Source of the DNA: a virus
Taxonomy: Duplodnaviria; Caudoviricetes
Strand: one strand, 5' to 3'
Virus record (IMG/VR): IMGVR_UViG_3300037991_005648
Span: 1-42,470 of that record
Length of the DNA stretch: 42,470 nt
The translations under genes were made by a program, and so were the position numbers. The notes below the pieces were generated by a model. The model was not told where the DNA came from, ran no database searches, and saw only the letters and a program-made list of their open reading frames with translations. Shown piece after piece: positions 4,344 to 26,795 of this stretch. Each line of letters starts with the position of its first letter. Position 1 is the stretch's first letter.

Positions 4344-4907
4344 ATGTCAAAAATAAGTGAATTGAGATTACATGCTCGTAACAGAAAACTACCTTCTGTT
4401 TTGCATATAACTAATATTACACCTGAATTGTTAGTACACAATCTATTTATCTATGAAGACCTGTCAAAAGATTCTGATAATCTTACAGGAATAAAGACTG
4501 CTGAAGAACGTCATGAGAATGCTGTGGCAGGAGTCAGTACTGGAAAAGATGTGTATGATTTAGGTGAGTTCTATAATCAAATCCATACAAATGAAATTGA
4601 TCTTACTGTAAAAGATTTAGAGATAGTGAACAAAAGATTTGCAATGTTAGATCCAGGACATAGTATTGAACATCACATGGATCCTCCTAACATATTCAAT
4701 CTTATTTGTCCTCTAACTGATCCTATAACTTTAGAAGTTAAAGAAGATACAACACATTTTTATACTTGTCAACCAGGTGAAGTATGGTTTATCAATCCAA
4801 GCTATATGCATGCTTCACACCATGAAGCAACAGATACACGTGTTGCTATATTAGCCAATTTTGAATACTCTGAGGAAACATATGAATACCTTACCAGGCT
4901 ATTATGA
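4344..4907 (+). CDS. 2OG-Fe(II) oxygenase, aspartyl/asparaginyl beta-hydroxylase-like
   Basis: HxD (IEHHMDP), distal His (GEVWFINPSYMH) and terminal Arg (TRVAIL) in a double-stranded beta-helix arrangement. Confidence 0.75.
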   Translation: MSKISELRLHARNRKLPSVLHITNITPELLVHNLFIYEDLSKDSDNLTGIKTAEERHENAVAGVSTGKDVYDLGEFYNQIHTNEIDLTVKDLEIVNKRFAMLDPGHSIEHHMDPPNIFNLICPLTDPITLEVKEDTTHFYTCQPGEVWFINPSYMHASHHEATDTRVAILANFEYSEETYEYLTRLL

Positions 4908-5811
4908 ATTAGAACCTGAAGATTGTACATTTACAGATGTTACTGCTGATGTTACTCATCAGTGTAACATGACGTGTAGCAATTGTTATATTCCAAATAG
5001 AGATGTTCCAGATATGGATATAGACAAGTTCATTGAATGTATAAGTAAGTTTCCTAAAAGGACAATGATAAGGATCATGGGTGCTGAACCTACGATGAGA
5101 GATGACTTAGTTGACATCATAAAAAAAATTAAACAAGCTAAACATAGATGTACCCTGTTGACTAATGGACTAAAATTGGCTAGTATGAGGTATACGCAAA
5201 GTCTTAAAGATGCCAAATTATCACACGTATACCTTAGTTTAAACGGCGTAGACAACGATGACTGGTATGAGGCAATAGATGAGCTCAGGTGTGCAAAACT
5301 TAAAGTAAAAGCATTAAGTAATATCAAGAAAGCTAACTTTATTGTTGACACTGGTACTATCTTATGTAAAGGTATAAATGATGATGCACCATCTAGATTA
5401 TTGCATTTGTTTAAACAACTAGAAATAGAACATGCTATGATCAGATTCAAGAACGTTGGACAACATGGAAGGTATTTATTAGAAAGTGTAGACAATTGGA
5501 AGCTGGATGATATGATACGTATATGTTCTGAACACTTTGGTGTGTCAGTTGATTATATTAACTCATGGAGAGATAAACCAATATATGGAAACCATGTTGA
5601 AGAAGATACATTTATGTTTCCTATAGATCCTAATTCTGAAACAAAAATGTTACATAGAAGCGGATATTGGGTTAAGTTAGCAGATTGGGATAGTCATGAT
5701 GACACGAGACTGTATCCTTTTATGAATCAAACACGTAGAGGAAGAATAACAGAAGACTTCAAAGTTGCACCTCTTCCTGCACACATTGTAGCTAATGAGG
5801 GTGGTTATTGA
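4882..5811 (+). CDS. Radical SAM enzyme (MoaA-like core, no evident SPASM cysteines)
   Basis: CxxxCxxC (CNMTCSNC), GAEPT, LTNG and YLSLNG motifs. Start moved from TTG 4861 to ATG 4882, which follows a GAGG RBS. Confidence 0.9.
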   Translation: MNTLPGYYELEPEDCTFTDVTADVTHQCNMTCSNCYIPNRDVPDMDIDKFIECISKFPKRTMIRIMGAEPTMRDDLVDIIKKIKQAKHRCTLLTNGLKLASMRYTQSLKDAKLSHVYLSLNGVDNDDWYEAIDELRCAKLKVKALSNIKKANFIVDTGTILCKGINDDAPSRLLHLFKQLEIEHAMIRFKNVGQHGRYLLESVDNWKLDDMIRICSEHFGVSVDYINSWRDKPIYGNHVEEDTFMFPIDPNSETKMLHRSGYWVKLADWDSHDDTRLYPFMNQTRRGRITEDFKVAPLPAHIVANEGGY

Positions 5812-6245
5812 TGGAGATACCTGAGTTCTTTACTAAAGGTAAAGACCATACATTGAATCCTATAAGATTATTATATAATTCAAAGAAGTATAAATATTAT
5901 CATGTGATTACATATGTGGATCGCTACCAAGCATATCTTAGTGCAAATGAATTCAAGGCAGCTAATAGGTTGCCATTTGAGTTTAACAAAACTATGAGAA
6001 TGTTTACTATTGAAAAGTCATTTAAGAAACTAAGAAATCATGGTGAAGGAACTTTCTTAACATTTTCTACTATTGAAGATCATCACACAATCAAAGATTG
6101 GATAGTGACAAAGGAATGGATGCCTTTGGTGTTAATGTATAGAAAAACTATTGTTGATATGAATAAAAATAAACACGTTGATATTGAAATTGTAGATGAG
6201 TTTTTGTCTGTGAAAAGGGAATGGATTGATGACAGCCACGACTGA
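5811..6245 (+). CDS. Hypothetical protein
   Basis: TGATG coupling to the radical SAM gene; fills the operon; no motif recognised. Confidence 0.65.
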   Translation: MEIPEFFTKGKDHTLNPIRLLYNSKKYKYYHVITYVDRYQAYLSANEFKAANRLPFEFNKTMRMFTIEKSFKKLRNHGEGTFLTFSTIEDHHTIKDWIVTKEWMPLVLMYRKTIVDMNKNKHVDIEIVDEFLSVKREWIDDSHD

Positions 6246-7074
6246 TATATGGGTTATCAAAACAGTACATAAAGAATGCCCATACCAAACAGAATGGGAT
6301 CCTAGTGAGTACTATACTGATATTCATGTTTATGATATCAGAGAACAAATTAACACATACTTTAACAAACCGTTTAACTTTCATTTAGTTACTAATGATA
6401 CAACAATTGCAATGCCTGGAATTAAAATTCACGATTGTACTCATTGGAACTTATGGGGTTGGTGGAATAAAATGGGATTGTTTAGTGAAGAACTCTCAGG
6501 TGATGGATTAAACATATACATTGATCTTGATACTGTTATACAAAGAGACTTTACATCGATCAGTGAGTTTATTCCATATGATAAAATATCAATGTTGTAT
6601 TGTTATTGGAAACCAATTGATTGGGAATCTCAAGCATTTAAAGTATCTAAGTTTGATCCAGATTTTGAATTTGCAACATTAATCAACTCATCAATCATGG
6701 CTTGGCATGGTAAGGGTTGGGATTGGATATGGAAACAGTTCATGGAAGATCCAGAAACATTTACATTTAGGTTCAGAGGTAATGATGAATATATGAACCA
6801 TTGGCATAGAGATGTAATCAATACTTTACCAAGAGGTTGGGCTTACTCATACTTCTTTGGTGCAGAAGAAGGTTCTGAGTTCTTTCCTAAAGACAAAGAG
6901 AGTTTTGTAAGAAGAGATGATTATATCTTTAGATTACTTAATGGACAAGGTAAAAAATTTAGAGATGAAGAAGAATATTTAGTTAAACCAACTGATGATG
7001 TAATTAGAAAGTCTGATGAGAAAGTCATTAAGACACATGAAAAAATTATAACACGGAGAGTTGAATATTATTAA
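6229..7074 (+). CDS. GT-A fold glycosyltransferase-like protein
   Basis: WWNKMGLF, DxD (YIDLDTVI), NSSIMAW and GNDEYM motifs. Confidence 0.8.
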   Translation: MTATTDIWVIKTVHKECPYQTEWDPSEYYTDIHVYDIREQINTYFNKPFNFHLVTNDTTIAMPGIKIHDCTHWNLWGWWNKMGLFSEELSGDGLNIYIDLDTVIQRDFTSISEFIPYDKISMLYCYWKPIDWESQAFKVSKFDPDFEFATLINSSIMAWHGKGWDWIWKQFMEDPETFTFRFRGNDEYMNHWHRDVINTLPRGWAYSYFFGAEEGSEFFPKDKESFVRRDDYIFRLLNGQGKKFRDEEEYLVKPTDDVIRKSDEKVIKTHEKIITRRVEYY

Positions 7075-7825
7075 TTTGATGACGATGAAGTGGGGTACAA
7101 AGTTTCCAGCTGATTACCCTAACTTAATTCATAGAATGGCTAAACGTCATATGCCTTGTGAGTTTAACTCATATTGTATGACGGATGATCCAATTGGATT
7201 GGATAAAGATATCATACCAGTTGAGTCAACAGAACAATGGCTATGGCAAGATATTGTTCACCAAAAACAATGGTACTTTTGGGATGGAATCAAGATGTCA
7301 TTGTTTGCACCAAGACTATGTGGTATAGAAGGAAAGATTCTTTTTTCTGATTTAGATAATCTTTTTCTTGGATCACTACAAAGAGTTATAGATACACCAA
7401 CACCTGCCATAATAGGTTGTGACTGGATGCCTCCTTGGCACGTTGGAATGCATGGTGGTAATTATTTTCTTACAATGCTATTCAATGCAAGTTTAATTTA
7501 TGTAGACAATACTGATCCTATTACAACTGAAATCTGGGATCACTTTACAAGAAACTATAAGCGAACTAAGCAAGCCTTGTATAGTGCAGATGCATACTTA
7601 TGGAGAAAGTGGAGACATAAGATCAATACTTATCCAAAAGGAACTGTATACTCATTTAACAGAGGAGCAGCCTATCCAGATAACTATACCGTAGCTGGAA
7701 GCACTTCAAAGTATAAACATAGACCAGATCATGCTGTGTGTGTTTTTATGGAAGACCATGAACCAGATCCACTAGATATAAATGACGGTTGGGTGGCAGA
7801 TGTATGGAGGCAATACCTTGATTGA
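7061..7825 (+). CDS. GT-A fold glycosyltransferase-like protein (paralogue)
   Basis: MKWGTKF, CMTDDP.G, KMSLF, DxD (FSDLDNL) and FNASL motifs. Confidence 0.8.
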   Translation: MNIINLMTMKWGTKFPADYPNLIHRMAKRHMPCEFNSYCMTDDPIGLDKDIIPVESTEQWLWQDIVHQKQWYFWDGIKMSLFAPRLCGIEGKILFSDLDNLFLGSLQRVIDTPTPAIIGCDWMPPWHVGMHGGNYFLTMLFNASLIYVDNTDPITTEIWDHFTRNYKRTKQALYSADAYLWRKWRHKINTYPKGTVYSFNRGAAYPDNYTVAGSTSKYKHRPDHAVCVFMEDHEPDPLDINDGWVADVWRQYLD

Positions 7826-8468
7826 TGTAGTGTGTTTAAAGGTTGGTATGGGTTACAAACATCGATATGTTAACGAACTATTTAAGCAAGTAAAGAAAAC
7901 AACTAAAATTAATGACTTTATTTGTATAACAGATAATTCAAGAGGTATTGATCCGGATATTAACATTAAGATGTATAAACCTATATTCAATGAACGTATG
8001 TGGTGGAATAAAGTAAGTTTGTTTGAGCCAGGTATGTTTGAGAATGATACAATCTATCTTGATCTAGATTGTTATGTACATGGTAACTTACAAGAGTTTG
8101 TGGATGGTCCAGGTGACATTTTACACACTAGTTGGTTCAATAAAGATGTTATTCGTTACATATTTTCCTGTAGTGTAAACTCATCAGTTATGTATATTAA
8201 TCAAAGTAATTATGAACCATTATGGAGAGACTTTCAAGATAATAAAATGAAACTATACAAATCTTTTTATGGATTAGATAGTTGGATATATAGAAGACAT
8301 CTTGATAAGTTAAAATTTTTTCTAGCTGGAATGGCTTATTCTTATCGCTATGGATCCAACTATCCGTATGATTGTGAACCAGAAAAGATAAGAGAAGACC
8401 ATCTTGTTTGTTCATTTGATGACATAGTTGATAAGGAAAGTAAGTTGAAGGAATTGTGGAATGTATGA
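7818..8468 (+). CDS. GT-A fold glycosyltransferase-like protein (paralogue)
   Basis: VCLKVG, CITDN, WWNKVSLF, DxD (YLDLDCY) and NSSVM motifs. Probable TTG start at 7818 after GGAGG (7806-7810); the ORF track start is 7782. Confidence 0.8.
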   Translation: MIDVVCLKVGMGYKHRYVNELFKQVKKTTKINDFICITDNSRGIDPDINIKMYKPIFNERMWWNKVSLFEPGMFENDTIYLDLDCYVHGNLQEFVDGPGDILHTSWFNKDVIRYIFSCSVNSSVMYINQSNYEPLWRDFQDNKMKLYKSFYGLDSWIYRRHLDKLKFFLAGMAYSYRYGSNYPYDCEPEKIREDHLVCSFDDIVDKESKLKELWNV

Positions 8469-9093
8469 TCCAGTATTAGATAAAGTATATGAGCTATTCA
8501 GAAAAGGTATGGGATATGTACATGAAAAACATATCTACAAGTTTAAAGATTATAGTGAGTGTGTTTTTGATACACAGATACAATCCAAGTGGTGGTTAGT
8601 TGGTCACTTACAAAATAAAGAAAAAAGAGGTGGGAGAGATATAAGAACATTTGATATATTAGCTAGTTGGTATGGTATTGTTATTGTACCCATGATAATG
8701 AATTACTTTGGCCAAGTTAAAATTAACCTATATGATGTTGATGAGTATACTTGTGATATTGCTAATCATATATGGCATAATGAGTATAATGGAATGGTTC
8801 AAGTACATCATAAAGATGTAGTATTTGACGATCTTGATTTACAAGGCGATGCTGTCATTAACTGTTCATGTGAACATATGTTTGATATGTCTCATATTGT
8901 ACATCAATATCCAAAAAAGTTGTACATTTTGCAAAGCAATAATAACAAAAATATTAAATGGTTACATATTAACTGTGCAGAGGGTCAAGGTGATTTAGCT
9001 AGACAAGCAGATCTAAGAAATATACACTTTGGTGAAAGTAAAGAGATGTATGGACAAAAAAGAATTATGATCATTGGAGAACACACAAAATGA
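8461..9093 (+). CDS. Class I SAM-dependent methyltransferase-like protein
   Basis: Rossmann-like pattern: DILASWYG (degenerate motif I), YDVD, KDV, VINCSCEHM, LQSNN. Confidence 0.55.
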   Translation: MYDPVLDKVYELFRKGMGYVHEKHIYKFKDYSECVFDTQIQSKWWLVGHLQNKEKRGGRDIRTFDILASWYGIVIVPMIMNYFGQVKINLYDVDEYTCDIANHIWHNEYNGMVQVHHKDVVFDDLDLQGDAVINCSCEHMFDMSHIVHQYPKKLYILQSNNNKNIKWLHINCAEGQGDLARQADLRNIHFGESKEMYGQKRIMIIGEHTK

Positions 9094-9500
9094 TCAGTAG
9101 AAAATCTAAAAGTATATTAAGACTTGATAGTAAGGTATATGGGTTTGTTATGTTGCTATACAGTCAGCAGTTGTTCAATCAATTTTTTAACGCAGAAGAG
9201 AATGCAGAGTGGGAAAGAATTAGACCTATTGTAGGTGAACTACATGAAGCTCTAAGTGAAGAAAATAGATGGGATGGTTACACAAGAGCTATTGAATATA
9301 ATGGTTTAGATCCAATTACATTTACTGGTGTAAACGATTCTTATTATCTTATGTATTGTATATCTAATTACAGAGTACCAGGAATAGAGTTGGATTCTTG
9401 TGTAACGTCAGAACACGAGAAGATTTTGTACTATGTATTTCAAAACATAACGAAAAAATCTCACAAGTACTATAATAAGTTTGGATCACGGCTTATTTAA
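9090..9500 (+). CDS. Hypothetical protein
   Basis: ATGA overlap with the upstream gene; last gene of the plus-strand operon. Confidence 0.65.
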   Translation: MISRKSKSILRLDSKVYGFVMLLYSQQLFNQFFNAEENAEWERIRPIVGELHEALSEENRWDGYTRAIEYNGLDPITFTGVNDSYYLMYCISNYRVPGIELDSCVTSEHEKILYYVFQNITKKSHKYYNKFGSRLI

Positions 9501-10265
9501 CTACTTGATATAATCTTTATCATATGGTGCTAGTGGCCAAACTAAGTCTGTACCAGCTATCTCCTCTACTGCGTTTTTCCATATACCCTCATCGTATATA
9601 ACATATCCTAATGTTATTCTTGGAACATCAGCATATGCAGTGTGCCATACAATCTTTTCATGTTCTTCTTTACGTCCATAGTAACCAACTTTACAAGACC
9701 ACCCTTTAGCATCTGGAATTGTTACTACGTTTGCTTCATTACCACCAGTTAAGTTGGGCTTAGGTGATTCAGATCCTGTTGGATCAATATGTCTCCAGAA
9801 CCCTTCTCCTGTAGGATTATATGTAAACAATATATTGTAACTTGGTACATTCCAGTTAGTATGCCAAGATATATATCCTTTTGGAGGATACCACATCTTC
9901 AATGCACAAAATCTATACCCAAGATAAGCTCCAAGATTATCATCTAACCATTTAGACTTTTCCATCAACGGTGCGCCTACTTCTTGATCAGTATGACCAC
10001 TCTTCATCCAAGTACCAATTTGGTTTAGATCAAATCCATAACTGTCAGGAGGATAACCATCATGCTCCATATGATTAATAGTTTGTAAGCATTCCACAGA
10101 GCAAGCATATTCAGATCGTCCTTCTTTATAAAATTTTCCTCCTCGAGCTTTGTACTTTTTATCTGGACCAAAGTTTTCTTCTAAGTTTAAACTCCAAACA
10201 AACTCTTTCCATTCATCTAAGTACGTCAAAATTTCCGATTGTATTTGATATATCGGGGTCATCAA
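9501..10265 (-). CDS. Cupin/2OG-Fe(II) oxygenase-like protein (HxN...H)
   Basis: WYPPKGYISWHTN, then IVWHTAY and PRITLGY, consistent with a double-stranded beta-helix metal site. The likely start is the ATG at 10262. Confidence 0.55.
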   Translation of the reverse strand: MMTPIYQIQSEILTYLDEWKEFVWSLNLEENFGPDKKYKARGGKFYKEGRSEYACSVECLQTINHMEHDGYPPDSYGFDLNQIGTWMKSGHTDQEVGAPLMEKSKWLDDNLGAYLGYRFCALKMWYPPKGYISWHTNWNVPSYNILFTYNPTGEGFWRHIDPTGSESPKPNLTGGNEANVVTIPDAKGWSCKVGYYGRKEEHEKIVWHTAYADVPRITLGYVIYDEGIWKNAVEEIAGTDLVWPLAPYDKDYIK

Positions 10266-11091
10266 TTATCCCTTCGTCTTGAGGTTTTCCTGGTATTGTG
10301 TAATGGTGAATAACTTTCTGATGTTTTTCACTTAGTTCCCATTCGCGGTATCCGTTAACAAAATTCCACTTAGGGTGAATCTCTTTAATCTTTACTTCAT
10401 AATTTGTATAGAAGTTTGTTCTCCAAAATGCGTAAGTGTCCCAGAACCACAATGAACTTGGATGTTCAAATTTATCTCTCCAGTTCTTCTTACTAGTAAT
10501 TTGTTCTTTATAATTTTGATACCATGCATGTAACATCTTTAATGTATGGGGCTTATTATTATATATAAACATTCCACAATGCCATAACATTCTGTAAACA
10601 CCGTTCTTAGCATTCTCTTCCCATGAGTGCACAGCATACAATGGTTTACCATCTGGCTCACCATTTTCCCAGATCATCTTCTTGTGTTCTTCTTCAAAGT
10701 GGGTTAGTTCTTTTTCTTTAGTAAAGTACACAACCTTAGCGTTATAAGGTCTATTTGTTGTCATTACCATATCATGAGAATCAGGAAGTTCATCAAAGAT
10801 ATATTTTATATCTTCATGCTCACAATATGTATCTGCATCCATATAACAGGTTTTATCATAGTGTGTTTGATCAAGAGCCCATAGCTTTGCTCTACAGTGA
10901 GCAGGTACTCCTGTTACAATCCTATCAAAGATTTGATTATCACGTGTCTCATTAACCCAATCTTTATGAGTAAACAAAGTACATTTAGCTTCTGGCCAAT
11001 AGTCTTTGATTGATTCAGCCGACATAACAGCTGCGTCATAATAAGGTTTTGTTAATGATCCTACGTATAAGAAACCATTATTTTGTGTCAT
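10213..11091 (-). CDS. GT-A fold (GT8-like) glycosyltransferase
   Basis: SAESIKDY, RAKLWAL, DxD (YMDADTY), HCGMF, WDTYAFW, KWNF and HHYT motifs. Probable start MTQNNG at 11091; the ORF track start is 11115. Confidence 0.8.
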   Translation of the reverse strand: MTQNNGFLYVGSLTKPYYDAAVMSAESIKDYWPEAKCTLFTHKDWVNETRDNQIFDRIVTGVPAHCRAKLWALDQTHYDKTCYMDADTYCEHEDIKYIFDELPDSHDMVMTTNRPYNAKVVYFTKEKELTHFEEEHKKMIWENGEPDGKPLYAVHSWEENAKNGVYRMLWHCGMFIYNNKPHTLKMLHAWYQNYKEQITSKKNWRDKFEHPSSLWFWDTYAFWRTNFYTNYEVKIKEIHPKWNFVNGYREWELSEKHQKVIHHYTIPGKPQDEGIIDDPDISNTIGNFDVLR

Positions 11092-11848
11092 CTTTTTGAG
11101 TATACTCCAGAGCAATCAACGCACCAACTGTAGCAATAACCTCCATTGTAGATTTTGCTTTACGAATACGAGACTTTAGTTCTCTATTCGTTGAGTTGGT
11201 AACAACAGGAAGTTCAAATGCTTCAACCTTTGCACCAAACAATCCTTCTTGTTTCACTTTATTTTCTTGATCTTTCATTTCAGATTCTTCACGCTCACGG
11301 AGGCGATGAATCTTGTTGATTTCTCTTTGTGTATTTTTATTCAATTCACTTTCTGGAAATAGTTTCTTTAGATGGTGCCATGCTGCTTCATGCATTGGTG
11401 CTGAGTCAATAGTATGGTTCTCAACACGATCATCTGGCATTCTCAAAAAGAAAGTAAGAACTGATCTTGCATCATTAGTGAAAAATGCATAGATTGGTTC
11501 ACCGTCTCCAAAAGGCCAATCTGGCTCTTTGACTTTTTTTTCAGCCACTCTTGTCTCCTCACGTCTGTCTTCATCTACTGGATCACGAGTCCAAGAATTA
11601 TTATGGATGTCAGCCTTTCGTACTAATCCAAGACGATCACTTCGATCCTTACTAAGGCTTTCTTTGTATACTTCCTTTTCCACACTCTCCTTATCATGAG
11701 GAGCATCGTGGTCAATTTCTTCTTCGAACTCTGGGATGTTCTTGTCTAGTTCTTTATTGACTAGCTCAGCTTCTGAACTGGCAACATTGTCACCAACATC
11801 AACCCTGAACCCATGTTGGGCAGGATCTATTTCTTGCACTTGTTCCAT
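11078..11848 (-). CDS. Hypothetical acidic protein with a helical C-terminal domain; possible fibre chaperone or adaptor
   Basis: AGGAG RBS; directly follows the 1356-aa repeat gene. The function is inferred from position only. Confidence 0.6.
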   Translation of the reverse strand: MEQVQEIDPAQHGFRVDVGDNVASSEAELVNKELDKNIPEFEEEIDHDAPHDKESVEKEVYKESLSKDRSDRLGLVRKADIHNNSWTRDPVDEDRREETRVAEKKVKEPDWPFGDGEPIYAFFTNDARSVLTFFLRMPDDRVENHTIDSAPMHEAAWHHLKKLFPESELNKNTQREINKIHRLREREESEMKDQENKVKQEGLFGAKVEAFELPVVTNSTNRELKSRIRKAKSTMEVIATVGALIALEYTQKDDTK

Positions 11849-11856
11849 TATAACTC

Positions 11857-14800
11857 CTAAGCAATTCTAACCCATAATTTAAGTGTAGTGACAGTACCAA
11901 CATAATTAACTGGTGTATCACTGTATGTATTTATATAGTCTTTATCATAGTTGGTTTCATACGTCTTTGAGAAAACCTTATCATAGTTAGACTCAAAATA
12001 ACCAGTAAATGTACCTTCATATGATTTCTTGTATGCTTTAGTAAAATCAACAAAGCCTTCATACGACTTTTCATAGTTAGTCTCGTAGAGCTTTGCAAAG
12101 TCTTGTTGCCATGCTTTTTCAAAAAGTCCCTCTCCAACATAACTAGGTCCTGACCAATCTTGTATATATTCAGCCGTATAAGTTTTTGTAAATGCTTTAT
12201 CATAATTTGCATCTGCTACATAATCTTTATCATATGATTTACTATAGTCTCTTTCATAATCTTTATCATAGTTCTTCGTATATGAAACATCAGTTAGATA
12301 ATTTTTCTCATAAGCCTTACTATAGTTCTTTTCATAATCTTTATCAAATGTACCTGTATACTCATGTACACTTGACCATGTTTTTGTCCACGTCTTAGTA
12401 TAAACCTTCTCATATTCTTTTGCATAGTCTCCTAAGAAGGTAAGAACCTTTATAAAGGCATTATCATAATTTTTACTATACACCTTTTCCCAGCTCTTAG
12501 TAAACAGTTTATTGTAGTTTACAAAGCCAGAAAATGTACCAATATAATCTGCACTAAAATCTTTTAGATAGTTTTTCATATACAATTTAGTATAGTTAGC
12601 AAACCCAGAAAATTCTGTATGGTATGTTGCATCCCAGTCTTTTGCATATGCTGCTGTATAATCTTTGTTATATGATCTACTATAGTGTTTGATATAATCT
12701 TTATTATAGTTTGCTAGGTAAGCTCCTAAGTAATCTTTAGCATATGCCTTCTGATAGGCTTTAGTCCAGGTTTTGGTGTAGTCTTTTTCATAAGCTGCAA
12801 CGTAGTCTTTTTCATAGGTTTTGGTCCATACTTTTTCGTAGTTCTTTTCATAATTAGCTTCCCAGTTTCTATTATATACACCTAACCATGCTTTCGTATA
12901 TGTACCAACATAGTCTTTGTCATAACTTTTTACATAGTCTTTGTCATATGTTTTAACCCAATTCTTTTCATATGTACCAACATAATTTTTATCATAACCC
13001 TTTACGTAATTTTTTTCGTACGTTCCAACATAATCTTTATCATAAGCCTTTACCCAGTTTTTTTCATACGTTCCAACATAGTCTTTGACCCAGGACTTGA
13101 CATAATCTTTGTTATATATTCCAAGCCAGGCTTTTTCATAATCTTTATTGTATGATGCATCAAATGAGCCCTCGTACGCTTTAACATAATCAACATTATA
13201 TTCTTTTTGATATGCTTTTTCATATGACTTGTTCCAGTCTTTAACGTAAGTTGCATCGAAACCTCCTTCGTATGACTTAACATAATTCTTTTGCCAATTT
13301 GTTAGCCATGCTTTTACCCAATCCTTCTCATACGTTTTAACATAATCTTTTACATAGTCTGTAACATAATCTTTTATATAATCCTTAGCCCAATTCTTTT
13401 CATAGGTCTTTACATAATTCTTTTCATATGCTTTTTCATATGCTTTCTCATAATTTTTAATCCAATTCTTTTCATAATCTTTGTCATAGTTTTTTGTCCA
13501 TATCTTTGTATAGCTTGCCTCAAAACTACCTTCATATATTTTATCATAATTGGTTGTCTGACTACCAGAAGCAAACCCTCCATAGAATACAGGTCCTACC
13601 CATATTTTTGTGTATGCTCCAACCCATGCCTTATCATAAACTTTATCATAGTTTTTATCATATGTTTTTACGTAAGCAGCTACGTAATCTTTATTCCAAT
13701 CTTTGTTCCAAACCTTATCATATGCTTTAACATAATCTTTTTCATAGTTGGTTATGTATAATGTTTCATATGCCTTGAGCCAATTTTTTGTATATGTTTT
13801 TAAATAATTTTTTTCATATGCAGCAACATAATTTTTTTCATATGCTGCCTCATAATCTTTTACATAGTCTTTATTGTAAACACCAAGCCATACTTTGTCA
13901 TAATTTTTTGCATAATCCTTACCCCAAACTTTAACATAATCTTTAGCAAAGGTTTGTGCCCAAGCTCTATCATATACACCAAGCCATACCTTATCATACG
14001 TTTTTACATACGTTGCATCGAAAGAACCTTCATATGATTTTACGTAATTGGCTTCGTAATCTTTTGTCCAATTCTTATCATATGCTCCTACATAATCTTT
14101 TTCATATGTTTTAACCCAGTTCTTATCATAGGCTTTTACGTAATCTTTTTCATATGTTTTGATCCAATCTTTATCGTATGCTCCTACGTAATCTTTATCA
14201 TAACTTTTTACATAGTTCTTATCATATGTCTTAACCCAATTTTTGTCATAGTTTCCATCAAACGATCCTTCGTAATCTTTGGACCAATCTTGAGTCCATC
14301 CTCCAATATAGATTGTATCGTAATCTCTATCATATCCTTTAACCCAATTTTTTTGGTAAGTCTTTACATATATTGTGTCGTAGTTTTTTTCATAATCTTT
14401 AGTATAATCTGTTACCCAATTTTTGGTCCAAGATCCTTCATATGTTTTAACATACTCTTTTGCAAATTCACCTTCGTATGTTTTAGACCAATCCTTTAAA
14501 TAATCTTTACTCCAAGCCTTTGAAAATATAGCTTCATAGTTTACTGATCCCGAATAATCTTTTTCATATTCCTTACCATAATCTTTTGTCCATAATTTTG
14601 TAAATGTTTTGTTATATAAAACTTCACCAGAAAATGAACCAGTATAATCTGTTTCATAATTCTTAACAAAATTCTTTGCAAAAACAGCAACGTAGTTTAT
14701 AAATCCTTCATATGCACCAGTATATAAACGGTCATACATTTTTGTATAATCAGCAGAATATGATACATGAAAGTTTTCTGGTTTACTATATACACCTTCA

Positions 14801-15927
14801 TATGTTTTAGTGTATACTTTAGTATATGTTTTAGTCCATTCCTTAGTATATGTTTCCTCACCAACATAATCTTTTTCCCAACTACCAGCATATGCTTTTG
14901 TATATGTTTTATCATAAGTCTTGGTATATGTAGCATCACCAACGTATGTTTTAGTGTATGTCTTTATCCAATCTTTTTCATACTCACCTGCAAAGTCACT
15001 TTGGTAAGATGGTGCACCTCCATATACACCAATGTAATCTTTCGTGTATATTCTTTCCCAACTTTTTTGATAAATCTTTAAATAGTTTGCAGCACTTGTA
15101 TAAGTCTTGGAATAATCTTTTTCATAACTACCTACATATTGACCAACAAATGTACCAACAAATGTTTTTGTATAATCTTTATGCCACTCTTTTGTAAATG
15201 TCTTTACATAGTTTTTTGAATATGATGAGCTTGCTGAGTCAATAATTTTTGTATCTAATATTGTACCTTGATTTACCCACGTGCCTGTAGCTGGAGCATT
15301 AGCTTGAATAACGTACTTACCAATTCCTGTATCAATTATTCTATTTCTAAGTCTTGCTGCAAGGGTTTGTATTTCTGTGTTTGACATCTGCTTTAATGTT
15401 GTACCAGATATTCTTAAAGGTAACACTTGAGCAGGAGCAGTTGCTACTGAAGTCTTTCTATACAAATTGTATGATGTTGATGTACTATTAGTTGTATCCA
15501 CCAATGCTGGTGTTATAGCCTCATACCTGTCTGAATCAGGATTTGTTGTTGACAGGACATAAGACCCAATTCCGTTAGACACAAGATTAGAAAGAGCAGT
15601 ACTAATGATGTACGTGTTAAGATTTGCATCTGAAGTCTCTTGTATTGTGGTGCCAAGTTCCACTGGCCGAACCATACTACTTTCAGAAACAGAAGTTAAA
15701 TTTTGATATACTGTTGTAGTGGAGGATGTCGCTGTATTTGTATCTGTGAAAGATCCAATACTTTCACCTGTATCTGTTCCAACTGACAATGTTCCAGTAC
15801 CTGAAGTACTAGAAGCAAATTCAGTCAATACTCTATGAACTATGTGGGTTAGTTCTGTATCTGGAGTTTCTTGCAAAGCTATCCAAGTTCCACCTCCAGT
15901 AGTCTTTATCTTGAGCGGCCGTCCCAT
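11857..15927 (-). CDS. 1356-aa aromatic-x-Lys-x tetrapeptide repeat protein with mirror-symmetric arms; putative giant beta-hairpin fibre
   Basis: About 235-aa non-repetitive N-terminal domain, about 1100 aa of [YWF]-x-[KG]-x repeats and a short C-terminal strand. Located in the late structural cluster. Confidence 0.85.
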   Translation of the reverse strand: MGRPLKIKTTGGGTWIALQETPDTELTHIVHRVLTEFASSTSGTGTLSVGTDTGESIGSFTDTNTATSSTTTVYQNLTSVSESSMVRPVELGTTIQETSDANLNTYIISTALSNLVSNGIGSYVLSTTNPDSDRYEAITPALVDTTNSTSTSYNLYRKTSVATAPAQVLPLRISGTTLKQMSNTEIQTLAARLRNRIIDTGIGKYVIQANAPATGTWVNQGTILDTKIIDSASSSYSKNYVKTFTKEWHKDYTKTFVGTFVGQYVGSYEKDYSKTYTSAANYLKIYQKSWERIYTKDYIGVYGGAPSYQSDFAGEYEKDWIKTYTKTYVGDATYTKTYDKTYTKAYAGSWEKDYVGEETYTKEWTKTYTKVYTKTYEGVYSKPENFHVSYSADYTKMYDRLYTGAYEGFINYVAVFAKNFVKNYETDYTGSFSGEVLYNKTFTKLWTKDYGKEYEKDYSGSVNYEAIFSKAWSKDYLKDWSKTYEGEFAKEYVKTYEGSWTKNWVTDYTKDYEKNYDTIYVKTYQKNWVKGYDRDYDTIYIGGWTQDWSKDYEGSFDGNYDKNWVKTYDKNYVKSYDKDYVGAYDKDWIKTYEKDYVKAYDKNWVKTYEKDYVGAYDKNWTKDYEANYVKSYEGSFDATYVKTYDKVWLGVYDRAWAQTFAKDYVKVWGKDYAKNYDKVWLGVYNKDYVKDYEAAYEKNYVAAYEKNYLKTYTKNWLKAYETLYITNYEKDYVKAYDKVWNKDWNKDYVAAYVKTYDKNYDKVYDKAWVGAYTKIWVGPVFYGGFASGSQTTNYDKIYEGSFEASYTKIWTKNYDKDYEKNWIKNYEKAYEKAYEKNYVKTYEKNWAKDYIKDYVTDYVKDYVKTYEKDWVKAWLTNWQKNYVKSYEGGFDATYVKDWNKSYEKAYQKEYNVDYVKAYEGSFDASYNKDYEKAWLGIYNKDYVKSWVKDYVGTYEKNWVKAYDKDYVGTYEKNYVKGYDKNYVGTYEKNWVKTYDKDYVKSYDKDYVGTYTKAWLGVYNRNWEANYEKNYEKVWTKTYEKDYVAAYEKDYTKTWTKAYQKAYAKDYLGAYLANYNKDYIKHYSRSYNKDYTAAYAKDWDATYHTEFSGFANYTKLYMKNYLKDFSADYIGTFSGFVNYNKLFTKSWEKVYSKNYDNAFIKVLTFLGDYAKEYEKVYTKTWTKTWSSVHEYTGTFDKDYEKNYSKAYEKNYLTDVSYTKNYDKDYERDYSKSYDKDYVADANYDKAFTKTYTAEYIQDWSGPSYVGEGLFEKAWQQDFAKLYETNYEKSYEGFVDFTKAYKKSYEGTFTGYFESNYDKVFSKTYETNYDKDYINTYSDTPVNYVGTVTTLKLWVRIA
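11926..15222 (-). repeat. 12-nt-period (tetrapeptide) coding repeat, degenerate at the DNA level
   Basis: aa 236-1334, e.g. YEKD YVKT YDKN WVKA; includes 26-aa super-repeats (5 tetrads + 1 hexad) in both outer arms. Confidence 0.95.
11928..11935 (-). promoter_or_regulatory. Candidate late promoter TATAAATA for the 11848-9501 genes
   Basis: Exact consensus about 80 nt upstream of the 11848 start. It lies inside a CDS in AT-rich DNA, so it may be chance. Confidence 0.35.
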
Positions 15928-21900: not shown

Positions 21901-24900
21901 ATATGCTTTTTCATAACTCTTAACATAATTCTTTAACCAGTTCTTATCATATGTTTTGTCATATGCTTTTTCATATGTTGCTACATAATCTTTATCATAT
22001 GTTTTTGTATACAAAGTATCATAATTTTTTGTATACGTTTTTTCCCATCTCTTGGTATATGCTGCTACGTAATCTTTTTCATATGTTTGATCAAATGCAC
22101 CTTCAAAGGCTTGATCAAAACTGCCTTCATAGTCTTTAGTATATGTTGCGTCAAAAGAACCTTCATATGATTTAGTATATGTTATGTCATAGTTTTTAAC
22201 CCAGTTCTTAGAATAGGTTGCATCAAAAGAACCTTCGTAATCTTTAACCCAGTTCTTTGTCCAAGCTCCTACCCAAACATTTACATAATCCTTAACGTAA
22301 TCTTTTTCATAGTCCTTTACATATACTTTATCATATGCTTTTTCATATGTTGCATTGAAAGCACCTTCATAGGACTTCACCCAGTTCTTAGTATAAACTT
22401 TATCATAATCTTTTACGTAGTCTTTATTGTATACACCAACCCATTCCTTAGCATAATCCTTTACGTAATTCTTTTCGTAAGTAGCGTTGAATGTACCTTC
22501 ATAAATTTTATCGTAGTTTGTTGTTTGTGAACCAGATGCAAAACCACCATAGAAAACAGGGCCAACCCAAATTTTTGTATATGCACCTGTCCATACTTTA
22601 TCATAACCTTTTACATAATCTTTACTATAGGTAGCATCAAATCCACCCTCGTATGTTTTTACATAATTCTTTGCCCATATTTTTGTATAGTCAGTTACGT
22701 AATCTTTTTCATAAACGCCAACCCATTCTTTAGCATATGCTTTTACCCAATCTTTTGTATAATCCTTTGAGTAAGTTTTGACATATGCTTTTTGGAACGA
22801 CTGCCAATCATCTGTGTTAACTTGTTCATTAGCCGTTTCATTATCTGTAACATTGAAGTTAGCTGTATACTTACCATTGGCTTTGTCTATTCTAAGATCG
22901 TCAATGAAGCCACCGATAGATGCATCCAAGTCACGTCTGTTACCAATTACTAATCTATTTGCACCTGTTAAGTTAGCCGCAGTTGTGTATGTTGTAGCAT
23001 CAGCAGTACCATTGATGTATACTTTAATTGTATTGCTTATTCTTACAATTGCAACATGATTAAATGTACTAGATGACCAAGGGCTGTTATCATTAGCTGT
23101 AAGTCTTGCATTAGTACCTTCAAAGAATATTATCTCACTTGGACTTGATGCATTGTTACCTCTAATGGCCCACTTGACACTATTGTCAGATGAATCATAT
23201 GCTTCTAAGATTGTTGCGTTGTTTGTACCTGGAGCTCTCATCCAGAATTCAATTGTGAAGTCTTCATTAGCAAAGTTAAAGTCATCATCAGAGAAGTTAA
23301 TTGTAAAGCCATGTCCACCACTTGGGACTTCTAATGAAGCAGAACCAAATTTCTTTTGATCTGTACTCTTTGCTGCACTACCATGTACTGTAGTTATATG
23401 GTTACCTTGATCAGACAGATCAATTATCTCTGTATCACCATCTGTTGCATTTGGTACTTCAGCATTCAACATCAATACTGTTGTGCTAAAGTCTTCATAT
23501 GGATTGTGATAGACTTTTACATAATCTTTTTGATATACACCAACCCAAGACTTATCGTAGTCAGCAACATAATCTTTATTATATGTTTGGTTGTAATCTT
23601 TTTCATACACACCAAGCCATGACTTACCGTATGCTTTTTGATATACACCTACAAAGCTACCAGTATATTCTCCAACATAAGTTTTAACATATGCTTTTAC
23701 CCAAGCCTTTTCATAATCTGTATCGTAGTTCTTGATATAGTCTTTGTTCCATGTTTTACCATAATCTTTATCATAAGACTTAACCCAGTTCTTATCATAT
23801 GCTTTTACCCAATCTTTCGTGTAAGTAGCAACGTAGTCTTTTACGTAATCTTTTTCATAACTTTTTACATATGTTGCAACATAGTCTTTATTCCAAACTT
23901 GATCGTATGCAGCAACATAATCTTTGACCCAATCCTTGGCCCAAGACTCATCATAATTTTTTACCCAAAGTTTATCATATGTTTTTACATAATCTTTCTC
24001 ATACGACTTAACCCATTCTTTTGTATATACACCAACAAATGCTTTTGTATATGTCTTTTGATAAACCTTATCATAATCTTTTACATAGTCTTTCTCATAA
24101 CTTGCATCAAATGAACCTTCATATGCTTTTGTATATGTTTTTACCCAATCTTTCGTGTAAACATTAACGTAGTCTTTTTCGTATGTTTTACCATAATCTG
24201 TTGTTTGAGAACCAGAAGCAAAGCCTCCGTAGAATACTGGACCAACATAAATTTTGTCGTAAGATTTTACCCAGGCTTTTTCATAAACTTTGTCGTATGC
24301 TTTTTCGTAATCTTTATTGTATACACCAACCCAGGATTTATCGTAAGTCTTAACGTAGTTCTTACTCCATACCTTAGTATAATCTTTTACAAAGTTACCA
24401 TCAAAAGAACCTTCATATGCTTTGTCGTATGCTTTTTGATAATCTTTAACCCAATTTTTAGTGTAAGTATTAGCATATTCTTTATGGTATGACTTGAGAT
24501 ATGTTTGAGCATACTCACCTTGATACAACTTAACATAATTTTTTAGATAGTCTTTGTTATAGTCAGTAACATAATCTTTCTCATATGCTTTTACCCAATT
24601 CTTTTCATATGTTTTTGTGTAATCACCAACATATAGTTTTTCATAATCTTTTGCATAAGCAGCTGCTCTATAAGAATCACCTAAACCTTGATATGTTCCA
24701 AGATAAACTACACCACCTAAGAAATTAGTTAAAGCTGCATAGTCTCTAACACCTTCATAAGTTTTAGTATAAGCTGTTCCATCATAACTTATTTGACCTT
24801 CATAAGCTAGTTGTCCTTGCCAAACATGAGTATATGATTCTTCTGTTTGATATGTTTTTGTATAATCTTTGTGGAAGTTTTCATCTGCAGCATACGAAGC

Positions 24901-25842: not shown

Positions 25843-26136
25843 CTAACTATACGTTTGGTACCAGATGTCCCCATTCGCTCCACCTGTTGGTGTGGAGGTA
25901 CTTACGTACACTACGTACTCGGAGTCATTGTTTGATGAGGCTTCAAAGTTCCTAGATGTTTTAGTAATCTCTGCAGAACTTATACTATTAACGAGACCTC
26001 TATCTGTTACATTTGCAGTTAATGCAAACGTTGTATTACCAAAGTTCCCCGTTGTGATTCCTGTATCTGGTAACGTTGCAACTTGAATATTTGCAGCAGC
26101 ATTAACAATCGTTACTCCAGCAACTTTTAATGGCAT
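25843..26136 (-). CDS. Small fibre-associated protein
   Basis: Contains GITTGNFG...VTDRGLV and STSTPTGGANGDIWY, both common phage fibre motifs; coupled to the upstream gene. Confidence 0.65.
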   Translation of the reverse strand: MPLKVAGVTIVNAAANIQVATLPDTGITTGNFGNTTFALTANVTDRGLVNSISSAEITKTSRNFEASSNNDSEYVVYVSTSTPTGGANGDIWYQTYS

Positions 26137-26795
26137 TACTTACTCTCCAGTTCTTCGACCCGGTTACTCAGCTCTTTAACTGCTTCGATTAACAAAGGAA
26201 TCAACGACTGATACTTAACTGCAAGATTACCATTTCCATTAGTAGACACAAGGAATGGTAGTTCAGCTTGAACTTCTTGAGCTATGACACCCAAATCTGT
26301 TTTTCCGTTTTTCTCATCATCAGTATCCCACTTGAACATATACCCATTTATGTTTTTTACAACCTCAAGAGCATTCTCCATTTGTTGTAAATCAATTTTC
26401 AATCTCTTATCTGAAGAATAATTTGCTTCAACATCACCGGCACTTATAATGTTTTTGAAATATCCATTACCCATCATCATGGTTGTATTACCAAGCTCAT
26501 GTGTAACATTTGCAGATGGGTGAACATTGGAACCAAGAGTTAATACTCCTGCAGTAGGAACAGTTCCTCCTCTAAGAATTTGAGTAACTGCTAATGTATT
26601 TGCAGAAAAGGTTCCATTAACATAACCATTGCCAGAAGTAATTGTATGGTTTGTTGAATTTGGAGTAGAAACATCACCAACAGTAACAACAATAGTACCT
26701 TGATCGTAGACCAATTGATTAGTTCTATTGATCCATTCTCTGAAAGTATCTGTTGAAGTCGATACGTTTGCTCCCAAATACGATGTCTTTGCCAT
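26136..26795 (-). CDS. Short tail-fibre protein with a C-terminal peptidase S74 intramolecular chaperone
   Basis: N-terminal TDTFREWINRTN anchor; YSSDKRLK, GVIAQEV and VKYQSLIPLLIEAVKEL coiled coil. Confidence 0.88.
   Translation of the reverse strand: MAKTSYLGANVSTSTDTFREWINRTNQLVYDQGTIVVTVGDVSTPNSTNHTITSGNGYVNGTFSANTLAVTQILRGGTVPTAGVLTLGSNVHPSANVTHELGNTTMMMGNGYFKNIISAGDVEANYSSDKRLKIDLQQMENALEVVKNINGYMFKWDTDDEKNGKTDLGVIAQEVQAELPFLVSTNGNGNLAVKYQSLIPLLIEAVKELSNRVEELESK

Follow-up and report, generated by a model that had tools for sequence, protein, structure and literature searches.

A mirror-symmetric phage protein most likely forming a giant β-hairpin filament

We here describe a protein of 1356 amino acids (aa) encoded at positions 11857..15927 of a 42,470-nucleotide (nt) stretch of viral DNA (IMG/VR record IMGVR_UViG_3300037991_005648; this whole stretch is the window), a 42.5-kb contig of a T4-like marine phage. 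In this protein, a base domain is followed by two arms of short aromatic repeats that mirror each other about a central Gly-rich motif. The mirror pairing is real, and the protein is most likely a giant β-hairpin phage filament of an undescribed structural class. We are highly confident that it forms a single-chain, two-stranded β-ribbon. The ribbon is probably a thin virion filament that reaches for the host and projects from its three-module base without trimerizing, a statement that as a whole is less sure than the ribbon itself, since the virion role and the non-trimeric state derive from gene context and side-chain chemistry. Assuming a straight ribbon, the filament would measure 173-184 nm.

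Parsing the protein into units at aromatics, starting from Y236, bears out exactly the unit list of the initial annotation, i.e. ten tetrads, eight hexads, 78 tetrads and an 18-residue centre followed by the mirror image, with arms of 540 and 541 aa as had been claimed (Table 1). The hexads of the outgoing arm start at residues 276, 302, 328, 354, 380, 406, 432 and 458, with five tetrads between neighbours, and those of the returning arm at 1106, 1132, 1158, 1184, 1210, 1236, 1263 and 1289, where a single pentad (WSGPS at 1258) is also found. In a single-register mirror test against shuffled spacings, 115 aromatics are mirrored compared to 52.5 after shuffling, and none of 300 shuffles reaches 115, in agreement with the symmetry proposed for the aromatic spacing. 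The rough chance of eight hexads occupying eight mirror slots among 131 units is 6e-13. Tandem duplication would repeat, and not reverse, the order of such breaks, which speaks against repeat expansion as the source of the mirror. In the central arms the residues are moreover segregated by face: positions 1 and 3 hold 156 aromatics, 110 Lys/Arg and no Asp/Glu, while positions 2 and 4 hold 104 Asp/Glu, no Lys/Arg and no aromatics. Judged from sequence, this alternation is the pattern of a β-strand with one predicted positive and one predicted negative face.

A palindrome or inverted duplication of the DNA was considered and rejected: blastn of one arm against the other yields an inverted match of 11 nt at best (E 1.1), and none of six short inverted repeats is centred on the tip motif. 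Protein identity to the reversed arm reaches at most 89 of 311 residues, which equals the background of the common tetrad. An assembly artefact was rejected as well, with contigs from four runs of four studies covering all 30 bins colinearly and a gap-free piece from run X5 spanning 13026-14631 across the turn with two differences; no single contig piece covers the whole gene, and joints with sides of <30 letters were treated as repeat cross-matches.

The two arms are coupled to each other in an antiparallel register. Tetrads were numbered outward from the centre, and mutual information was calculated for 16 position pairs at nine offsets. The two strongest cells both lie at i+j=1572 (z 12.0 and 9.4) and link an aromatic in one arm to tetrad position 3 in the opposite arm; weaker cells are located at i+j=1570 (positions 2 and 4, z 4.4 and 5.6) and 1574 (aromatic-aromatic, z 4.6), one odd-sum cell (z 5.0) is unexplained, and the maximum in the parallel-register control is z 3.5. 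Of the antiparallel contacts initially anticipated at i+j ~1570, the coupling as such stands, with its centre displaced to 1572. We infer that 1572 represents the direct cross-strand register, with 1570 as the alternative, and the flanking diagonals would fit a twisted hairpin, for which they are expected. The pairing is selective: Tyr is opposite Lys/Arg in 98 of 111 pairs and Trp/Phe in 11 of 43 (p 1e-13), the partners of Trp/Phe otherwise being Ala, Gly or Thr. None of the 270 rungs of the aromatic face carries more than one aromatic (131, 131 and eight with none). A Gly-to-Gly match at the same tetrad index was tried as the main rule and discarded, its weak signal (p 0.004) being a consequence of the aromatic-to-position-3 rule.

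The same code can be read in related proteins. Base-domain searches retrieved six viral and 12 metagenome loci (L numbers), including some duplicates. Out of 41 offsets, a pair score trained on L001, L003 and L004 selects the mirror register in the window (z 9.5), L026 (z 7.3) and L027 (z 6.2), with no parallel register scoring in any of the three; as training and test proteins are kin, this shows transfer of the code and not independent origin. The central arms comprise 78/78 tetrads in the window and L025, 79/79 in L001, L003, L004, L005, L030, L031, L033 and L035, and 61/61 in L026, which has a different tip, while in L027 one side consists of 25 tetrads, a LamG domain equivalent to a single tetrad and 53 further tetrads, and the other of 79, the set representing four architectures and not twelve independent cases. 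Landmark pairs at window tetrads 24, 32, 36, 56 and 73 correspond to L026 tetrads 15, 23, 27, 39 and 56 in both arms, i.e. with offsets of 9, 9, 9, 17 and 17. Hence L026 differs in length by nine tetrads near the tip and by a further eight between landmarks 36 and 56, at mirror positions of both arms. Positions substituted between L001 and L003 also tend to have another substitution at their mirror partner or one tetrad away from it (odds 5.1, p 0.02; 4.6, p 7e-6). Indels matched between the arms, as initially expected, are thus seen in the central arms of close relatives, but not for an 89-residue insert in L001 and L030.

The base provides a view of how the chain would return. Its three modules are homologous to each other (hhalign probability 98.5-99.7). 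A short loop or hairpin connects the final two strands of modules 1 and 2; in module 3 the equivalent loop holds the entire repeat region, and this module has no last strand of its own. The C-terminal strand of the protein fits as the missing strand, in line with the proposal that the C-terminus returns to the N-terminal domain, and extrapolation of the register pairs W1352 with G221. Searching 1.84 billion representatives with the base yielded 298 clusters at 50% identity, the best 150 of which were listed, and an LWxR-type end strand closes 85 of 152 proteins examined. Among 48 proteins with both anchors, the insert ranges from 31 to 1127 aa, the longest being that of the window, and 19 family members out of 60, compared to 5.5 expected, have a [YF][YF][GAS]G or [YF]GG motif at the midpoint of their insert. 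In the distant locus L036 the protein is near-minimal, with a loop of ~30 residues and the same three downstream genes. Structure prediction gave a divided outcome, as the model of the window's own tip is of low confidence and that of a short homologue, P0054 (341 aa), is confident (predicted local distance difference test score, pLDDT, 89.9; predicted template modelling score, pTM, 0.82), with continuous strands 239-281 and 293-339 around a loop. In this model the base is predicted to adopt a pseudo-threefold β-prism-like fold. Antiparallel fold-back of the chain is therefore supported by anti-diagonal coupling, by arm lengths that change together and by a C-terminal strand that equals the strand missing from module 3, and in the central arms we find neither uncoupled arm lengths nor local solenoid contacts.

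Distant members of the family carry Tyr-x-Gly-x or Tyr-x-Arg-x tetrads. One of them, P0129 (1335 aa), combines Tyr-x-Gly-x arms with a globular domain that replaces the short turn at the insert midpoint, and another protein, P0135, exceeds the window protein with 1601 aa.

Several observations weigh against the proposed ribbon filament. In the hexad zone direct coupling is weak, the mirror register is best in only three of five proteins, and the folding programme used below mis-paired this zone or left it unpaired. The comparison of L003 and L004 gave no clear mirror clustering of substitutions either way. The 89-residue insert of L001 (gene 10001-14359) and L030 is present in the proximal outgoing arm only; it is possibly a side branch, with a possible turn mid-insert, and scores just 2.6 when paired as a side hairpin. 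L026, on which the 61/61 case rests, contains an in-frame stop (TGA) at codon 68 in the part encoding the base. Among distant relatives, strict mirror spacing is significant in 12 of 46, and a gap-tolerant mirror test, which is cruder and retained about ten rows with misplaced anchors, places 1 of 40 above all shuffles; this means that many of these members are less regular or have bulges, branches or tip domains. In the P0054 model the insert is the weakest part (pLDDT 50-78), and an AlphaFold model of the window's own tip, built on a 20-row alignment, is uninformative (pLDDT 35); the alignments had register gaps, and the tip model was left out of the fold search. Finally, the base is found in none of 50,697 records of cultured phages. 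We note that L036 has a single in-frame TGA at codon 84, likewise in the base-coding part; for both loci, sequencing error, a pseudogene and read-through are candidate explanations.

The directly upstream gene encodes a gp38-like adhesin of 3297 aa that is built from the same tetrads as the ribbon protein. PF05268 matches residues 1776-1871 with 36.3 and 42.2 bits (cut-off 25), a partial match to model positions 37-126 of 218, and a LamG domain (PF13385) is located at nt 22798-23499. Between the gp38 match and a Gly-rich C-terminal part, for which no Pfam or PDB match was found, lie ~1,280 residues of tetrad repeat, and more precede the match. We applied the pair score, trained only on the ribbon family, to this protein using an RNA-style folding programme. 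The total score is 154 compared to 2.5-15.6 in 12 shuffles, and nested stems emerge at residues 472-507/566-601, 1012-1087/1106-1181, 1427-1474/1518-1565 and 1898-1945/1964-2011, the tips of which coincide with four GPVFYGGF motifs that were not given to the programme. A 32-unit stem (634-777/1186-1329) continues the second of these across the LamG bulge, and an outer stem (400-451/1330-1381) closes a three-way junction, in addition to two further hairpins. Two orthologues give the same three-way junction, and their long stem is 14 tetrads longer on each side with the same 27-tetrad remainder. The programme missed the two C-terminal tip motifs of the window adhesin, and the pairing code detected no partner for its irregular regions (~residues 5-390 and 2315-2640). 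This pairing predicts an adhesin of nested ribbons that include a three-way junction, with the LamG domain forming a bulge.

Further observations concern the variation of these adhesins. The stems end in differing turn motifs in L004 and L005 (residues ~1595 and 2127) and in L001 (~2130-2160), and the window adhesin has extra short hairpins compared to its orthologues, hence tips and branches appear exchangeable. The LamG domain of the L027 ribbon protein and its flanks (L027:4303-5055) closely match those of the window adhesin, suggesting module exchange between the neighbouring genes. In L003 (585-9990) a frameshift within the repeats, which probably reflects an error in the sequence, divides the adhesin into open reading frames (ORFs) of 1527 and 1673 aa.

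Alternative arrangements of the arms need to be considered. The tip of T4 gp37 is a six-stranded needle formed by three hairpins, and three fold-back hairpins of the ribbon protein could likewise bundle into a stiff, six-stranded trimeric needle. A lone two-stranded ribbon of such length would presumably be floppy, and most phage fibres are trimers (PMC12143355), as is the gp37 needle, which has the same insertion topology (PMC6957217). However, the ribbon protein has no His-x-His pairs and only five His in its arms, and both the Tyr/Trp and Lys face and the Asp/Glu-rich face appear unfit for a narrow barrel core. The neighbouring gp38-type adhesin family is described as monomeric (PMC12032242), and the predicted branching of the window adhesin would be hard to pack threefold; we therefore regard the trimeric needle as unlikely. 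Coupling and matched indels are the same for pairing within and between chains, and two chains could consequently form a strand-swapped ribbon of ~360 nm with a base at each end. This is rendered decidedly improbable by the Gly-rich midpoint motif found across the family, by family loops that shrink to ~30 residues, by the confident single-chain model predicted for a short member and by the stems of the adhesin, which are nested and non-crossing save for one long-range stem of four units that is not found in orthologues. Cross-pairing between the two window proteins, moreover, reaches a best score of 15.5, not above background, compared to 110 for self-pairing.

It is also conceivable, although we give this very little credence, that the ribbon is real and acts outside the virion, in or on the infected cell or as a scaffold modified by the transferase-like neighbours. 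The three downstream genes, one of them glycosyltransferase-like, are linked even in L036, where the ribbon is nearly absent, and the modelled base resembles lipid-binding MABP domains. Nevertheless, the gene is co-oriented within a block of baseplate and fibre genes, and the ribbon protein has its tetrads, its tip motif and, in L027, a LamG domain in common with the gp38-like adhesin. Lastly, the arms could form a β-solenoid or β-helix, or a disordered low-complexity array, the mirror being a by-product of repeat expansion. Many direct DNA repeats exist between the arms (395 blastn pieces) and the tip model is of low confidence, but period 4 is the only one in the autocorrelation, which rises slightly at lags 16, 24 and 32 and gives no sign of a coil period. 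Pro is absent and Gly scarce in the central 624 residues, parallel registers are uncoupled and the indels are mirror-matched. This last reading, which we consider scarcely tenable, is largely refuted by the coupling, indel and pair-score results. We consequently retain the single-chain hairpin ribbon.

The initial annotation recognised no described phage fibre fold in the protein. This agrees with the literature and structure searches, but goes too far as regards topology, in view of the T4 gp37 needle, in which 128 residues are inserted into a collar domain. According to PMC6957217, this needle (D11) is an out-and-back insertion of residues 882-1009, with a stem of 882-931 and 960-1009 and a distal tip, and the C-terminal residues of the chain complete its base D10 (811-881 plus 1010-1026); the needle is a trimer with seven His-coordinated irons, and its base has the gp10/gp11/gp12 collar fold. 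Insertion into a base that is closed by C-terminal residues is thus, as predicted from coupling, homology and the homologue model, common to both proteins. The insertion of the ribbon protein is nevertheless about nine times longer (~1,100 residues) and has none of the His-x-His metal sites, and the gp37 needle lacks the tetrad code. Pfam, tail PHROG and PDB profile searches revealed no homology to the gp37/gp12 collar or needle families, and T4 gp11 aligns with the P0054 model over 45 residues only (Z 2.1). The ribbon protein is topologically like the gp37 needle, and not a member of its family.

Pfam has no family for the ribbon protein and none common to 71 homologues, PHROG returned one weak match of unknown function over the repeats and none for eight homologues, a PDB sequence search with the family profile gave no match at E<=1, and Foldseek searches of PDB and BFVD with the homologue model gave nothing at E<=0.001. 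The ESM Atlas contributed unnamed clusters only (0.86-0.87 for the arm, 0.93-0.94 for the homologue). In a VIA fold search of the P0054 model against 48,161 chains, MABP/P2 domains (3tow, 6sb1, 6u23, 2qp2 and 8b6v, C-terminal domains; Z 6.0, 6.0, 5.7, 5.3 and 3.5) are the top five of nine matches and the only coherent ones, with a root mean square deviation of 3.7-5.0 A over 110-122 residues, or 115-122 residues at Z 5.3-6.0; these matches cover model residues 42-341, to the chain end. With Z <8 and identities of 8-11%, the likeness may reflect only a common arrangement. The three-fold internal repeat of the MABP/P2 β-prism is present in the three modules of the phage base, and the perforin-2 P2 domain has an inserted hyper-extended, twisted β-hairpin with a hydrophobic, lipid-binding tip (PMC7593815). 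The phage modules, however, each include a helix, and no MACPF domain is present.

The gp38 adhesins of T2/S16-type Straboviridae resemble the upstream 3297-aa protein, and not the ribbon protein: like them, it has a gp38 β-helix/Gly-rich segment and follows a short S74 fibre gene. Known gp38 loops are four-residue turns (PMC12032242). A collagen-like fold finds no basis in the repeat region (no G-x-x-G-x-x-G, four Pro in residues 236-1334), nor does a coiled coil (autocorrelation 0.01 at lag 7 compared to 0.31-0.33 at lag 4) or a β-solenoid, triple β-helix or β-spiral, as only multiples of four correlate and parallel controls are flat. Aromatic-Lys and aromatic-Gly cross-strand pairs occur in designed β-hairpin peptides, and ionic self-complementary β peptides alternate two faces. 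These peptides span 12-20 residues, whereas the ribbon would be a natural chain whose faces each have ~270 rungs and whose register code is aperiodic. In the passages considered, a recent tail-fibre atlas describes no such class, and the word 'hairpin' is absent from its main text (PMC12143355), and our literature searches, the coverage of which excluded most subscription journals and supplements, found no description of such a fibre.

We propose that the ribbon forms as follows. The Gly-rich tip motif would nucleate folding, and the arms would then zip together toward the base, where the C-terminal strand would lock into module 3. Each rung of one face would have one aromatic packed over its partner of the opposite strand, aromatics alternating between the strands: Tyr over Lys, Trp over Ala, Gly, Thr or Lys, and Phe mostly over Gly. 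Slippage by four residues would be prevented by aperiodic landmarks (e.g. WLGV opposite YEGS-FDAT) that fix the register, and each pair of hexads would insert a rung free of aromatics, at 26-residue intervals, altering twist or stiffness near the base. The base may then dock on the tail or fibre apparatus, while contact with the host surface would be made by the aromatic tip or, in relatives, by lectin domains attached as bulges. Ribbons might stack face to back through their oppositely charged faces. A broader proposal, on which we are evenly divided, is that the four-residue pair code (Tyr-Lys, Trp-small, Phe-Gly, Val-Val) constitutes a protein analogue of base pairing that determines ribbon register across hundreds of residues and generates RNA-like secondary structure, i.e. 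180-nm stems, lectin-domain bulges and three-way junctions, and that the virion carries long single-chain filaments as well as a branched net of adhesin, one face being positive and the other negative.

If correct, the ribbon represents a fibrous protein architecture outside the collagen, coiled-coil, β-helix and β-spiral classes, in which one 160-kDa chain spans ~180 nm; by comparison, the 145-nm long tail fibre of T4 comprises ten chains of ~850 kDa in total (masses from PMC6957217). Viruses in dilute seawater would thereby extend their reach at low cost. The base family of 298 clusters has no annotation, cultured carrier or solved structure in the libraries searched. As the register is written in a simple, transferable pair code, programmable β-strand pairing can be tested directly, and the code might offer a scaffold for protein nanowires of set length. 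Should the analogy to base pairing hold, these proteins would form a new fibrous class with a shape that is readable, and possibly programmable, from sequence.

Table 1. Features of the ribbon gene and its surroundings in the window.
Feature	Position (nt)	Strand	Residues	Basis or remark
Baseplate genes (gp5-, gp25-, gp6-, gp7-, gp8-like)		-		Pfam/PHROG scans of window
2185-aa DUF4815 protein		-		Same baseplate/fibre block
97-aa gene and 219-aa short fibre with S74 intramolecular chaperone	25843..26795	-		PF13884, tail-fibre PHROGs
gp38-like adhesin, 3297 aa	15937..25830	-		PF05268; directly upstream of ribbon gene
Whole ribbon gene, 1356 aa, 160 kDa	11857..15927	-	1-1356	ORF
Base domain	15244..15927	-	1-228	Three homologous modules, ~80 aa each
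Outgoing arm, proximal	14539..15222	-	236-463	10 tetrads, then 8 hexads, 26-residue period
Outgoing arm, distal	13603..14538	-	464-775	78 unbroken aromatic-x-K/G/A-x tetrads
Tip/turn motif WVGPVFYGGFASGSQTTN	13549..13602	-	776-793	FYGG core at geometric midpoint
Returning arm, distal	12613..13548	-	794-1105	78 tetrads, coupled to 464-775
Returning arm, proximal	11926..12612	-	1106-1334	8 hexads (one pentad), then 10 tetrads
C-terminal strand (22-residue tail)	11860..11925	-	1335-1356	Ends LWVRIA; predicted completion of base module 3
256-aa gene	11078..11848	-		Directly downstream; linked to ribbon gene in 12/12 loci examined
300-aa glycosyltransferase-like gene	10213..11115	-		Weak PF00535, E 0.0098, below cut-off
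254-aa gene	9501..10265	-		37% to L036 neighbour; 10/12 loci

The ribbon gene follows the baseplate genes, the S74 fibre and the gp38-like adhesin, all in the same orientation. Upstream of the adhesin, the 97-aa and S74-fibre genes are linked in all five loci that extend that far. The product of the 256-aa gene, 35% identical to the neighbour in L036, may serve as a chaperone or as a partner in attachment; its L036 homologue, with no Pfam or named PHROG match, begins in a way that looks like tail-fibre assembly chaperones. The 300-aa gene is present in 11 of 12 loci, with 32% identity to the L036 neighbour. The 254-aa gene, without a family match, encodes a His-containing protein which we take to be oxygenase-like. 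Of 24 listed runs containing the ribbon gene, 20 are marine, seawater or estuary metagenomes. At 4344-11115 of the window, genes resembling modifying enzymes (Asp/Asn hydroxylase-like, radical SAM and several glycosyltransferase-like) converge on the fibre block, and glycosyltransferase-like neighbours flank the gene in L036 too.

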